Source: Escherichia phage teqdroes. Taken from it: DNA of 64,000 nucleotides. Location of the stretch: sequence record NC_054932.1; one strand, given 5' to 3'. Under the pieces are notes generated by a model. That model had not been told where the DNA came from and did not search any database. It worked only from the letters and a program-made list of their open reading frames with translations. The number at the start of each line of letters is the position of its first letter. Positions within the stretch are counted from its first letter, which is position 1. A program made the translations under genes and the position numbers. This document shows positions 1 through 50,803 of this stretch, one piece after another.

Positions 1-299
1 AAACTTTGAACTGTACGTTGACTCATGGCACCAATAAGATATTTACTAACCCCTGATTTTCTTATCAGTTTTTGTGTGCCAGCAGTAATTAGCGTGGTAA
101 TTCCCTGATTAATATCACCTTGAGTCAATCCTAACCAATCTGAATTTAGGCCCAAGTTATTATAAGAAAAGTTGCTAATTGAACTTATCAACGAAGAGCT
201 TTTAGTTGATGGAGTTGTCGCAAAAACGCAGCTAAACATATTATTACGTTGGAAATCTGCGTTTATTGCTTGATTATTAAATTCCTCTAAAGAATACAT
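1..299 (-). CDS. 54: baseplate tail tube initiator gp54, N-terminal part (gene runs off the window start)
   Basis: Minus-strand ORF starts at ATG 299..297, overlapping the gp48 stop (TAATG), and stays open to position 1; translation begins MYSLEEFNNQAINADFQRNN; sits where gene 54 lies in T4. Confidence 0.6.
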   Translation of the reverse strand, partial: MYSLEEFNNQAINADFQRNNMFSCVFATTPSTKSSSLISSISNFSYNNLGLNSDWLGLTQGDINQGITTLITAGTQKLIRKSGVSKYLIGAMSQRTVQS

Positions 300-47560: not shown

Positions 47561-47848
47561 ATGATTCTTTATGCTAAAGTATCATCCATTGAAAATGGAT
47601 ATAAATATGATCAAGAAGCAGCTAAAGCCTTGATTGATGATTATGGCATTTTAACATGTTTTGAAGTTGAAAAGGTTTACATTGACCGTTCATCTTCTCA
47701 GGTTAAATTAGTGAAGGAAGACCGTAAATTTAATACAGTAAATTTTGATTTCTTTATTGAAACAGAAAAAGGTCCTCTTGAATATGATATTTTCAAGAAT
47801 CCTTTGGGTCTTGAATGCATCGTAAATATGTATTATCATAAATGGTAA
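47561..47848 (+). CDS. hypothetical protein
   Basis: 95-aa ORF. Confidence 0.5.
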   Translation: MILYAKVSSIENGYKYDQEAAKALIDDYGILTCFEVEKVYIDRSSSQVKLVKEDRKFNTVNFDFFIETEKGPLEYDIFKNPLGLECIVNMYYHKW

Positions 47849-47945: not shown

Positions 47946-48018
47946 TGGGAATTAGCCAAGTTGGTAAGGCACTGGATTTTGATTCCAGGATGCAAAGGTT
48001 CGAGTCCTTTATTCCCAG
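47946..48018 (+). tRNA. tRNA-Gln: tRNA-Gln (anticodon UUG)
   Basis: Cloverleaf folded by hand; acceptor TGGGAAT/ATTCCCA; CCA not encoded. Confidence 0.75.
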
Positions 48019-48019
48019 C

Positions 48020-48106
48020 GCGAGAATGGTCAAATTGGTAAAGGCACAGCACTTAAAATGCTGCGGAATGATTTCCTTGTGGGTTCGAGTCCCACTTCTC
48101 GCACCA
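48020..48106 (+). tRNA. tRNA-Leu: tRNA-Leu (anticodon UAA), long variable arm, CCA encoded
   Basis: Cloverleaf folded by hand; acceptor GCGAGAA/TTCTCGC. Confidence 0.75.
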
Positions 48107-48111
48107 AATTT

Positions 48112-48185
<74 letters not shown>

Positions 48186-48231
48186 ATTTATGACTCGTCG
48201 TGAGACGCTCAGTTCTTTATTAGGGACTGAT

Positions 48232-48840
48232 ATGCATTTTTATCTTTATAAAATAACAAATAAAATTAATAATAAAATTTATATTGGTGTGCATTCTACC
48301 GAAAATTTAGATGATGGATATATGGGTTCTGGTAAATTATTAAAAAGAGCCCAAGACAAGTATGGTATAGAAAATTTCTCTAAAGAAATATTAGAGTATT
48401 TTGATGATAAAGAATCTATGCTTGAAGCCGAGAAAAATATTGTCACAGAAGAGTTTTTAAATAGACCAGATGTGTATAATTTAAAACTTGGCGGAGAAGG
48501 TGGATGGGACCATATAAATAATTATCCTATGACAGATCAGCAACGCGAATTAATTTCATTGGGTGTTAAAAAGGCACATTCTAACGGAAAATTAAAAGGA
48601 TGGTCTTCAAATGGATTAATGAAGAATGGCTTTGCTGGTAAAAATCATTCTCAAGAAGCTAAACGTAAAATAGCAAAAGCAAACGAAGCAAAAGTTTCTG
48701 CGGATGAAAGAAAAAGAAGAATAGAAATTTCTAAATTATATGATTTTTCTAAGCGTGGTGAATTATCTAAATATGCTAAGCATATTGGCGTAAGTCATAC
48801 TCAAGCAAAAAGAATTCTAAATCAAATTAACAATATATAA
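48232..48840 (+). mobile_element. segB: GIY-YIG homing endonuclease (SegB-like) inside the tRNA cluster
   Basis: FYLYKITNKINNKIYIGVH...YMGSG GIY-YIG motif; track ORF opens at 48190 but ATG 48232 has an AGGGA ribosome-binding site. Confidence 0.75.
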
Positions 48841-48846
48841 ATATTT

Positions 48847-48936
48847 GGAGGCGTGGCAGAGTGGTTTAATGCACCGGTCTTGAAAACCGGCAGTCGCTCC
48901 GGCGACTCATAGGTTCAAATCCTATCGCCTCCGCCA
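48847..48936 (+). tRNA. tRNA-Ser: tRNA-Ser (anticodon UGA), long variable arm, CCA encoded
   Basis: Cloverleaf folded by hand. Confidence 0.75.
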
Positions 48937-48942
48937 GTTTTT

Positions 48943-49018
48943 GCTGATTTAGCTCAGTAGGTAGAGCACCTCACTTGTAATGAGGACGTCGGCGGTTCGA
49001 TTCCGTCAATCAGCACCA
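48943..49018 (+). tRNA. tRNA-Thr: tRNA-Thr (anticodon UGU), CCA encoded
   Basis: Cloverleaf folded by hand. Confidence 0.75.
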
Positions 49019-49019
49019 A

Positions 49020-49094
49020 GGCCCTGTAGCTGGAAGGTTCAAGCAAGCGACTCATAATCGCCAGATGGTGGTTCAATTCCACCCAGGGCCACCA
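49020..49094 (+). tRNA. tRNA with CAU anticodon (Ile2/lysidine-type or Met)
   Basis: Cloverleaf folded by hand; identity between Ile(CAU) and Met cannot be decided from sequence alone. Confidence 0.6.
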
Positions 49095-49106
49095 AATTAT
49101 GAATTA

Positions 49107-49193
49107 GGGGAGTTATCCCGTAGAGGTAGCGGTGTGGACTGTAAATTCATTGTCATTGCGACTCGGGTGGTTCGACTCCACCACTCCCCACCA
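49107..49193 (+). tRNA. tRNA-Tyr: tRNA-Tyr (anticodon GUA), type II long variable arm
   Basis: 87 nt with CCA; anticodon loop CTGTAAA; T-arm GGTGG-TTCGACT-CCACC; acceptor GGGGAGT/ACTCCCC. Confidence 0.55.
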
Positions 49194-49197
49194 ATTT

Positions 49198-49272
49198 GGA
49201 TGTGTAGCTCAATGGTAGAGCGATCGCCTGTTAAGCGATTGGTTATAGGTTCGAATCCTATCACGTCCGCCA
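49198..49272 (+). tRNA. tRNA-Asn: tRNA-Asn (anticodon GUU)
   Basis: Cloverleaf folded by hand; anticodon loop CTGTTAA. Confidence 0.6.
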
Positions 49273-49386
49273 AATTTGTGACAACTGTCACATTAATATC
49301 TACTTGACGCGATTATAGGGGTTGAACTGATCACTCTTCTCTTAATTTCGTGTGAAGACATCTTGATTGTTGGAGTAGGTATTAAT

Positions 49387-49462
49387 GTGGCCGTAGTTCA
49401 GTTGGTAGAACTCGAGATTGTGATTCTCGTAGTCATGGGTTCGACTCCCATCGGTCACCCCA
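49387..49462 (+). tRNA. tRNA-His: tRNA-His (anticodon GUG)
   Basis: Cloverleaf folded by hand; anticodon loop TTGTGAT. Confidence 0.6.
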
Positions 49463-49466
49463 ATTA

Positions 49467-49542
49467 CGGGGCATAGCTCAGAAGGAAGAGCAAGGACCTT
49501 CTAAGTCCTAGGTCGTAGGTTCGATCCCTACTGCCTCGACCA
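49467..49542 (+). tRNA. tRNA-Arg: tRNA-Arg (anticodon UCU)
   Basis: Cloverleaf folded by hand; anticodon loop CTTCTAA. Confidence 0.7.
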
Positions 49543-49560: not shown

Positions 49561-49911
49561 ATGAAAGGTAATGTTTATTTAGTAGTTCATGATTTAACAT
49601 TTTACTTCAATGAATATGAAAAACATATCTCATTTCGTGAAATTAATTTACTTTATCAACACGCGGATTATATTTATATTCAAAACGAATTTGGTCATTG
49701 GCAATTTCTCAAAAATCGTTCATTTGGCTTAGATGGTTACGAATACTTTGAACGTAAAGACCTTTTAGATAAAATTCCGTTATCTACGCAATATCAAAAT
49801 CACAAATCTTTATATAAATGCCGTCCAATTCGAAATGTTGAATCCGCGTATGAAGCAATTGATTTATGGCGTGAACGCCGTAAACAGATTGATGCTTTAA
49901 AAGAATATTAA
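49561..49911 (+). CDS. hypothetical protein
   Basis: 116-aa ORF directly downstream of the tRNA cluster. Confidence 0.5.
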   Translation: MKGNVYLVVHDLTFYFNEYEKHISFREINLLYQHADYIYIQNEFGHWQFLKNRSFGLDGYEYFERKDLLDKIPLSTQYQNHKSLYKCRPIRNVESAYEAIDLWRERRKQIDALKEY

Positions 49912-49914
49912 GAA

Positions 49915-50248
49915 ACCGGGTCGCTACCGGTAAGTCGTCGGACTGATGTTCCCTGAGTAAGGAATTGCGTTAATAATCTTTGCGTTTATTGATGCCCTCT
50001 TACATCACAGCAGAAACGGCGCACCGAATTATCGATTCGAGGAAATATCTTTGCCGTAAGCCGAGTAGCGTTTTTGACGGAACGTTCGGATATGGTCGAG
50101 ATATGGCCTTTTAAAAATATTGAGTAGCGTCAACTGCTTAATAACCGGGTTCGAATCCCGGCGTTTCGTACAAACACTTGCCTTAGCAGGTGGAACCCCG
50201 ACAAGGTTGCCGCAAGGCTTAGCCCCGACCGAAAGGTTGGGGCTTTTT
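49915..50248 (+). ncRNA. candidate stable small RNA region (compare T4 species 1/2 RNAs), ending in a rho-independent terminator
   Basis: About 330 bp with no convincing ORF; tRNA T-arm-like CCGGG-TTCGAAT-CCCGG at 50145..50161; hairpin plus T-run at 50221..50248. Confidence 0.35.
50221..50248 (+). terminator. rho-independent terminator AGCCCCGACC-GAAA-GGTTGGGGCT plus T5
   Basis: Read from sequence. Confidence 0.65.
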
Positions 50249-50250
50249 GG

Positions 50251-50258
50251 TATAAATA
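50251..50258 (+). promoter_or_regulatory. late promoter core TATAAATA upstream of the IP-like ORF
   Basis: Exact motif about 37 nt before the ATG at 50295. Confidence 0.5.
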
Positions 50259-50294
50259 AGTATATTAAAACCACGAATTAAAACAGGAAATAAG

Positions 50295-50768
50295 ATGAAA
50301 TCATATGCTCAATTTTTAAATGAAGCGGTGTTAAATGAAGCATCTAGCACCGAAATTCAAGCTGTCGCAAAAGCAGCCATTGCCGCGGGTAAATATTCCT
50401 ATAAAGATGCTTCCGATGAATCACGATTCCAATTTGCTCGTGATATGAAAGCCGAAGGATTTACAGGGAATGCAGTTAGTATGGCCTGGAAAAGTTTAGT
50501 TGCTACTGGCGCTGCTTTTGCAAAGGCTTCAGGTAAACCTGCTCCTAAAGCAGATCCTAAAGCTACACAAGAAAAAAATATTGTTAAAGGAATTATCTCC
50601 AAATATGAAGCTATCCTTAAAGAGCTTTTAGTAATCAAAACTGAAGGTCAAAAGTTAGCTCGTGCTTATAGTTTCAAAGATAACCCACATGCTCACTCTC
50701 TTGAGTATGTTGAAGACATCCAAAAAATTATTAAAGACCGCATTTGGTCTGCTAAACAAATCAAATAA
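50295..50768 (+). CDS. internal-protein-like protein (157 aa) with capsid-targeting-like N-terminus MKSYAQFLNEA
   Basis: N-terminus resembles the T4 internal-protein targeting sequence with L-x-E sites; bracketed by homologous terminators. Confidence 0.5.
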   Translation: MKSYAQFLNEAVLNEASSTEIQAVAKAAIAAGKYSYKDASDESRFQFARDMKAEGFTGNAVSMAWKSLVATGAAFAKASGKPAPKADPKATQEKNIVKGIISKYEAILKELLVIKTEGQKLARAYSFKDNPHAHSLEYVEDIQKIIKDRIWSAKQIK

Positions 50769-50775
50769 CATTCTT

Positions 50776-50803
50776 AGTCCCAACCGAAAGGTTGGGACTT
50801 TTT
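50776..50803 (+). terminator. rho-independent terminator AGTCCCAACC-GAAA-GGTTGGGACT plus T-run
   Basis: Homologous to the 50221 terminator with compensatory stem changes. Confidence 0.65.

Follow-up and report, generated by a model that had tools for sequence, protein, structure and literature searches.

What is encoded in an apparently gene-free interval at the end of a phage tRNA cluster? The question is raised by positions 49915-50248 of a 64-kb stretch of Escherichia phage teqdroes (NC_054932.1), the whole of which is referred to as the window below. Ten tRNA genes are clustered at 47946-49542, and the interval lies at the 3′ end of this cluster. The original prediction took it to be the likely counterpart of two stable RNAs that T4 encodes near its tRNA genes, and base-for-base alignment with T4 rnaD and rnaC bears this out. 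We conclude that the interval very probably consists of the orthologues of rnaD and rnaC, followed by a conserved trailer and the terminator of the tRNA operon. The two RNAs are known T4 features and so are not new as such. They have been known for about 50 years, and reviews and recent papers still call their function unknown (PMC3014915, PMC9697503, PMC12685909). Our literature searches for a function of RNAC or RNAD, which did not cover the primary papers of the 1970s and 1980s, returned only statements of an unknown role.

Identification of rnaD and rnaC

Three observations carry the assignment: identity with T4, the lack of a conserved reading frame and folds supported by covariation. A blastn search with the interval matched 804 phage records, nearly all from Tequatrovirus and its relatives and several at 100% identity. 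The matching DNA is annotated as rnaD and rnaC in T4 (NC_000866), Aplg8, RB68 and RB9. Overall identity to T4 is ∼99% for each RNA. The rnaC homologue shows two differences from T4 over its full 139 nt (nhmmer E = 3e-42), and the rnaD homologue is identical from 49912 to 50025 and differs in its first ∼5 nt (nhmmer E = 9e-33). A four-way alignment of the window, T4, Aplg8 and RB68 is almost invariant from 49912 to 50249. As in T4, rnaC closes the tRNA cluster at its 3′ end, with rnaD before it and the operon terminator after it. The ends of both RNAs in teqdroes were transferred from NC_000866 (rnaD 71053..71171, rnaC 70908..71046), which gives the following layout.

49907..50025, plus strand: rnaD homologue (T4 species 2 RNA), 119 nt; T4 coordinates transferred via alignment
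50026..50031, plus strand: 6-nt spacer GAAUUA between rnaD and rnaC, from the alignment; in other genera its counterpart separates a tRNA 3′ end from rnaC
50032..50170, plus strand: rnaC homologue (T4 species 1 RNA), 139 nt; T4 coordinates transferred via alignment
50171..50220, plus strand: conserved 3′ trailer with three small hairpins, between rnaC and the terminator
50221..50249, plus strand: intrinsic terminator of the tRNA operon, with a 10-bp stem, GAAA loop and U5

The T-arm-like motif that had first suggested a stable RNA, CCGGG-TTCGAAT-CCCGG, lies exactly at 50145-50161. As a mark of stable RNA it applies to rnaC and not to rnaD, the T-arm being confined to the former. The strong terminator is present as predicted, with a 10-bp stem containing seven G-C pairs and a GAAA loop at 50221-50244, followed by TTTTT. 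The covariance search that had been suggested found nothing, neither RNA having a family in Rfam 15 (cmscan, E ≤ 10, run on 3.5 kb and then on the 361-nt interval). The top scores in the interval, tRNA-Sec at 16.6 bits (threshold 47) and isrK at 16.5 bits on the minus strand, are below the gathering threshold.

Reading frames over the RNAs

The interval had been described as free of open reading frames (ORFs). No conserved coding frame is present, and in this sense the description stands; taken literally it does not, since three mechanical ORFs overlap the RNAs.

49980-50114, plus strand: mechanical ORF of 44 aa, matching a PHROG family
50120-50281, plus strand: mechanical ORF of 53 aa, matching a PHROG family
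50029-50274, minus strand: mechanical ORF of 81 aa, from the ORF list

The two plus-strand ORFs match PHROG families 24262 and 28391 with E = 1e-34 to 1e-39, and hypothetical proteins are annotated here in many records. We nevertheless give almost no credence to the view, implied by these annotations and families, that the region encodes small proteins. Both the 44-aa and the 81-aa frame are interrupted by stop codons in T4 itself. The 53-aa frame contains a stop in VR25, reads through the terminator hairpin and is unrelated in phages that have a tRNA gene after rnaC. Because the frames are broken or unrelated in homologous regions, the ORFs and the corresponding GenBank ‘hypothetical proteins’ are artefacts. 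The substitution pattern is compensatory for RNA helices, and the PHROG matches reflect near-identical DNA; all three ORFs are spurious. PHROGs 24262 and 28391 are themselves made up of ORFs over rnaD and rnaC without frame conservation, and they match ‘hypothetical proteins’ in many GenBank records of T4-like phages.

Structure of rnaC

RNA folding, recommended earlier as a check for tRNA-like substrates, gave a positive result: rnaC folds with an acceptor-like stem and a canonical T-arm. The proposed structure was assessed on an alignment of 20 distinct homologues that represent eight or more genera or phage groups; rnaC position 1 corresponds to window position 50032. The set comprises Tequatrovirus (the window, T4 and RB68), Gaprivervirus (VR25), Kanagawavirus (Q7622, Kosakonia phage 305 and one IMG/VR contig), Moonvirus (Moon, KM16 and NM4.3), Karamvirus (Pet-CM3-4), Tegunavirus (fHe-Yen9-01) and Gelderlandvirus (Melville), together with Enterobacter phage SonariX, Citrobacter phage Ursula, an IMG/VR contig matching Edwardsiella phage PEi20, three Klebsiella-phage versions and a further IMG/VR contig (L110). 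The elements of the fold, all on the plus strand, are as follows.

50033..50039 (CGAUUCG) with 50162..50168 (CGUUUCG), plus strand: acceptor-like stem, 7 bp (rnaC 2-8/131-137), from covariation
rnaC 9-11 with 76-78, plus strand: AGG/CCU helix, nearly invariant
50043..50106, plus strand: arm 1, a long irregular hairpin in the D-arm position (rnaC 12-75) with loop UUGACG at 50074-50079
rnaC 79-86, plus strand: A/U-rich linker, from the alignment
50118..50143, plus strand: arm 2, a 10-bp hairpin (rnaC 87-112) with the 6-nt loop CGUCAA at 50128-50133 (rnaC 97-102)
50145..50161, plus strand: T-arm CCGGG UUCGAAU CCCGG (rnaC 114-130), starting 1 nt after arm 2
50074..50079, plus strand: loop 1, UUGACG, whose proposed partner is loop 2, CGUCAA, at 50128-50133

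Folding of the single sequence gives a minimum free energy of −50.2 kcal/mol (z = −4.55). Across the 20 sequences, 90.7% of the alignment cells form standard pairs, and the figure falls to 34-47% after sliding the partners by 1-3 columns. Compensatory change is widespread: 19 of the 37 pairs are altered on both sides, and 500 column shuffles never reached the observed covariation. In arm 2, nine of the 10 pairs show such change. The T-stem varies from CCGGG/CCCGG to CCUGG/CCAGG and CUUGG/CCAAG, so that two pairs covary. In the acceptor-like stem, T4 has CGAUUCG/CGUUUCG and most others have CGGUUCG/CGUUCCG, an A-U to G-C change at the third pair. A tandem U·U mismatch at the centre of this stem is kept in 19 of the 20 sequences and is replaced by Watson-Crick pairs only in fHe-Yen9-01. 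Past the acceptor strand, the 3′ tail consists of U138, a variable position 139 (A, U or C), the invariant C140-A141 and, usually, A142. Against a chance expectation of 0.03, the 64-kb window holds seven copies of the T-arm core, GGTTCGANTCC; six belong to tRNA genes and the seventh to rnaC.

Arm 1 evolves differently. Its stems are wholly different between a ‘T4 class’ and a ‘Melville/Klebsiella class’, and the PEi20 version too has an entirely different stem sequence. The loop is kept: in every version the arm ends in a 5-6-bp stem capped by the 6-nt loop UUGACG (rnaC 43-48). This loop and that of arm 2 are perfectly complementary in all 20 homologues. Where they change they change jointly, to UUGAUG/CAUCAA in fHe-Yen9-01 and to UUGGCG/CGCCAA in the Klebsiella phages, which makes two covarying positions. 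We read this as a predicted 6-bp loop-loop (‘kissing’) helix that would lock the two arms of rnaC together.

Could rnaC nevertheless be a genuine decoding tRNA of unusual form, distinguished for instance by a large insertion or an extended variable arm? The acceptor stem, the T-arm and the position in a tRNA slot speak for it. GenBank NC_054920 (phage G9062) labels its rnaC homologue tRNA-OTHER, the Rfam tRNA-Sec model matches weakly (16.6 bits, E = 1.2), and ARAGORN calls part of the homologue tRNA-Phe in Pet-CM3-4 (L007 1247-1342) and tRNA-Met in SonariX (L010 1254-1348). These ‘anticodons’ of the relatives disagree, however, and they rely on a different, non-conserved acceptor stem; in the window, neither ARAGORN nor the Rfam tRNA model calls a tRNA at 50032-50170. 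The fold supported by covariation has no 7-nt anticodon loop, and the two 6-nt loops that might serve instead pair with each other. A decoding function is on these grounds very improbable. Informal inspection of rnaC by eye for the aminoacylation identity elements G3:U70 and G-1 revealed none. A kinship with tRNA-Sec, considered because of this weak Rfam match, the arm in the variable position and a possible eighth acceptor pair, was rejected with a score of 16.6 bits against the threshold of 47. We conclude that rnaC is a tRNA half-mimic: it keeps whole the limb formed by acceptor stem and T-arm and has two long arms in place of the decoding limb. Because the D/anticodon half has been exchanged for these loop-paired arms, rnaC has no anticodon loop with which to decode.

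Distribution and genomic setting of rnaC

Across hundreds of Tequatrovirus genomes rnaC is 97-100% identical. In Moonvirus, Karamvirus, Gelderlandvirus and SonariX it lies inside the tRNA cluster, a few nucleotides after tRNA-Trp or tRNA-Met, and tRNA-Gly starts ∼6-11 nt after it. It directly follows tRNA-Met in Kanagawavirus Q7622, with no tRNA gene downstream, and in Tegunavirus fHe-Yen9-01 it stands after a coding sequence and 9 nt before tRNA-Trp. Two Dhakavirus phages, CLB_P2 (L248) and vB_EcoM_005 (L254), have rnaD joined straight to the trailer and terminator at ∼601-800 of the respective loci; rnaC is precisely missing, and rnaD, trailer and terminator are kept.

Three pattern scans of IMG/VR returned mostly chance matches, and eight true rnaC loci remained after an nhmmer filter. 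The most divergent of these (L160) matches Edwardsiella phage PEi20 in sequence. A metagenome pattern scan gave nine loci, all of T4 type or Klebsiella type, with no new loop variants. The pattern scan of bacterial and archaeal genomes gave only chance matches among the matches listed, the best nhmmer score being 13 bits.

Structure, variation and spread of rnaD

rnaD consists of a 5′ hairpin and a long stem whose base is invariant and whose tip is hypervariable.

49915..49931, plus strand: 5′ hairpin A, a 5-bp stem ACCGG/CCGGU with the 7-nt loop GUCGCUA, from folding
49934..49940 (GUCGUCG) with 50017..50024 (CGGCG-C-AC, one bulged C), plus strand: closing stem, 7 bp, from the alignment
49954..50007, plus strand: hypervariable central hairpin, which differs between otherwise near-identical phages

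In 14 sequences, distant versions included, 89% of the cells of the core structure are paired, compared with 34-48% after sliding, and seven pairs show compensatory change. Hairpin A has an A-U to G-C change in RB9 and a C-G to U-A change in W70, the inner stem changes from U-A to A-U in Gaprivervirus and Dhakavirus, and the closing stem, whose core pairs are invariant in 13 of 13 sequences, has a G-C to C-G change in Moon and Q7622. Five or more unrelated versions of the central hairpin (T4, RB68, T2, VR25 and W70) occur between invariant flanks. Among the same phages, rnaD identity is mostly 80-90% as against mostly ≥99% for rnaC.

rnaD-like RNAs sharing the motifs AAGUCGUCG, UCCCUG and GGCGC were found in Karamvirus, SonariX, Moonvirus, Kanagawavirus, Klebsiella phages and the Vequintavirinae phages W70 and A73. 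Most stand directly 3′ of a tRNA; in the Klebsiella phages ∼65 nt intervene. The rnaD-like RNA of Escherichia phage W70 (Vequintavirinae; L252 1493-1592) directly follows tRNA-Met and combines the same invariant scaffold with a short, different central hairpin. A73 carries the W70 sequence, and BLAST also matches Cronobacter phage CR9.

The internal loop of rnaD (GACUGA/GAAA; CUGAUG...GAAA) was considered as a hammerhead or K-turn. Both were rejected: the junction is two-way and not three-way, the loop sequence is not kept in the Moon, Karam and Kanagawa versions, and Rfam gave no match.

Transcription and processing

According to PMC2330249, which cites Broida and Abelson on both points, a single transcript of ∼1.75 kb is the precursor of the eight T4 tRNAs and of species I and II, and transcription of the cluster terminates past the species I gene. 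RNA sequencing (RNA-seq) classes T4 RNAC and RNAD as late-accumulating, and a Northern blot with an RNAC probe supports this (PMC9697503). In teqdroes, TATAAATA late-promoter boxes lie on the plus strand at 47600 and 48836, upstream within the cluster, and they could supply late transcription.

We consider it probable that both RNAs are cut from the tRNA operon transcript by tRNA-processing enzymes. RNA polymerase would read the tRNA cluster through to the terminator, leaving rnaD and rnaC as the tail of the transcript. RNase P, which recognises acceptor/T-arm helices, would then cut on the 5′ side of rnaC and in doing so also free the 3′ side of rnaD, and exonucleases would trim the 3′ ends of both RNAs back to their closing stems. 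In the annotation rnaD ends in ...CACC, and rnaC in ...GUA, directly followed by the invariant C. RNase T stalls at C residues, and these ends would fit such stalling. A dimeric rnaD-rnaC precursor, ‘p2Sp1’, was reportedly described in the 1980s.

A 116-aa ORF (phrog_3355; 49561-49911, plus strand) that is present in T2, RB68 and Aplg8 and not in T4 sits between tRNA-Arg and rnaD. Its stop codon falls inside the annotated 5′ end of rnaD (∼5-nt overlap). The 5′ end of rnaD would be made by an endonucleolytic cut in the A-rich tract that follows the upstream tRNA or, in teqdroes, the 116-aa ORF. Because this ORF intervenes, the rnaD 5′ end in teqdroes cannot come from 3′ processing of tRNA-Arg, and a cut in the A/U-rich AAUAUUAAGAAA would be needed.

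Possible functions of rnaC and rnaD

Our best guesses at function, read from structure and sequence, are tentative and may well prove wrong. rnaC is a putative non-decoding tRNA mimic that would occupy or titrate a factor recognising the tRNA acceptor/T-arm, and candidate targets are a host tRNA-directed nuclease, modification enzyme or processing enzyme. It would suit the role of decoy or titrator because it is unable to decode and yet presents the acceptor/T-arm on a rigid body. rnaD is a putative protein- or RNA-binding scaffold whose variable hairpin may set its specificity. Taken one step further, the two might act in trans as counter-defence or host-takeover RNAs, one a decoy made rigid by its kissing loops and the other a scaffold with an exchanged hairpin for host specificity; this extension is rather doubtful. 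The literature offers a single hint at function: a T4-like phage, BW1, evolved on semi-permissive E. coli ECOR34 acquired the same single-nucleotide polymorphism (SNP) in rnaD in all lines (PMC12685909). From the authors’ coordinates, the SNP would lie in the variable hairpin. A host-specific rnaD hairpin is consistent with this convergence on a semi-permissive host.

Several points weigh against the picture drawn so far, the first being that both functions are guesses. The tRNA region of T4 is dispensable in laboratory hosts (PMC2330249), and the Dhakavirus phages have lost rnaC. The Kanagawavirus copies of rnaC (Q7622 and IMG/VR contig L090) keep the T-stem and replace the loop UUCGAAU by UGCAUGC, and therefore the canonical T-loop sequence is not universally required. 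The loop-loop pairing is backed by only two independent covariation events, and the same complementarity could equally form an intermolecular dimer. The positions of the mature ends in teqdroes are those predicted by carrying over the T4 annotation. Finally, a BLAST search of 5,426 E. coli genomes with the complete interval, insensitive to seeds shorter than ∼20 nt, found no match.

Some of these points would also be explained if the RNAs were functionless by-products, rnaC a decayed tRNA gene and rnaD a structured spacer, both kept for processing, stability or termination in cis. Besides the non-essential tRNA region of T4 and the absence of rnaC from Dhakavirus, the free replacement of the rnaD central hairpin and the constant location of both RNAs within or at the end of tRNA clusters would fit. 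Against this explanation stand the 97-100% identity of rnaC in hundreds of Tequatrovirus genomes and its retention in eight or more genera or phage groups, where every helix shows compensatory changes and the conserved loop-loop pair covaries. A decaying pseudogene would lose these conserved covarying features, which thus speak against one. The rnaD scaffold stays unchanged as far as another subfamily, the Vequintavirinae, and in T4 RNAC is seen by Northern blot and both RNAs accumulate late in RNA-seq (PMC9697503). We consider the by-product explanation unlikely.

The trailer and terminator together (∼80 nt, ending in a U-tract) fold with z = −3.99, and the trailer is almost unchanged in the Dhakavirus phages. 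Because these keep it despite missing rnaC, it is conserved in its own right. By analogy with the spacer RNAs of E. coli tRNA operons, base-pairing regulators or sponges might be produced here, with the trailer and terminator as the main candidate; we regard this as quite improbable. The compactness of the unit, its U-tract end and its conservation in Dhakavirus speak for it, and the variable hairpin of rnaD could serve as a seed. Set against them, the E. coli genome search found no match within its limit of ∼20 nt, the most conserved loops of rnaC pair mutually and are not free, and in none of the accessible papers is a signal for rnaC or rnaD with Hfq or in RNA interaction by ligation and sequencing (RIL-seq) reported.

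For experiments on function the comparison of these structures offers several handles: a half-mimic of tRNA with paired loops, a tandem U·U in its acceptor stem, an rnaD scaffold with a swappable hairpin, and the presence of these RNAs in many genera, rnaD extending to a second phage subfamily. The question of function becomes more directly testable. The loop-loop pairing, the tandem U·U, the rnaD scaffold with its variable hairpin and the spread beyond Tequatrovirus may be additions to published knowledge. An Rfam family for each RNA would correct both the spurious protein annotation and the mis-calls of rnaC by tRNA finders.

Neighbouring ORFs and spacers

Downstream of the operon terminator is a 157-aa ORF (50295-50768; phrog_2280) with a TATAAATA box ahead of it at 50251 and, behind it at 50776-50799, a near-copy of the operon terminator. 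The arrangement looks like a cassette inserted between duplicated terminators. Within the cluster, between tRNA-Gly and tRNA-Ser, lies an ORF of 216 aa for a GIY-YIG SegB-like homing endonuclease (phrog_314; 48190-48840, plus strand). At this place T4 and Aplg8 have tRNA-Pro, which is not found in the window. Between tRNA-Asn and tRNA-His, the 114-nt ORF-free spacer at 49273-49386 folds into a long hairpin (−34.4 kcal/mol, z = −3.2), and the folding model suggests that it could be another structured spacer RNA.

Comparison with known systems

Like a tRNA, rnaC has a 7-bp acceptor-type stem that stacks on a T-stem of 5 bp with the loop UUCGAAU, and its maturation would likewise proceed by RNase P and 3′ trimming. 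Its arm 2 takes the position of the long variable arm of class II and tRNA-Sec shapes, and it occupies a tRNA slot in the operons. It differs from a tRNA in having neither a D-arm nor an anticodon arm and in the tandem U·U of its acceptor stem. Where a tRNA gene encodes N-CCA, rnaC has U, a variable base and the invariant CA(A); the U-CCA that follows the acceptor strand in the Klebsiella-phage versions is probably a coincidence.

The tRNA-like domain of tmRNA and the YrlA/Y-RNA-like RNAs resemble rnaC in keeping the acceptor/T-arm half to borrow tRNA enzymes. Unlike tmRNA, rnaC has no tag reading frame and no pseudoknot ring; ARAGORN found no tmRNA, and Rfam gave no tmRNA match in the interval. 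Unlike YrlA, it has no Ro-binding stem, and the YrlA model matches only true tRNAs in the window. No sequence relationship to either was seen.

Escherichia coli tRNA operons yield stable RNAs derived from their spacers, such as 3′ETS-leuZ. As structured side products of tRNA excision, RNAs of this type offer a parallel that fits rnaD and the trailer with its terminator. They differ in having no sequence similarity to the phage RNAs, and the rnaD scaffold is invariant across phage subfamilies.

The closest comparison is with T4 itself. Both phages have the gene order tRNA-Arg ... rnaD, 6 nt, rnaC, trailer and terminator, and few substitutions separate the window copy from that of T4. T4 lacks the 157-aa ORF and the second terminator. 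Its rnaD begins 1 nt past tRNA-Arg, whereas in teqdroes the 116-aa ORF stands between them and rnaD does not follow tRNA-Arg immediately. This is a difference of context and not of the RNA itself.

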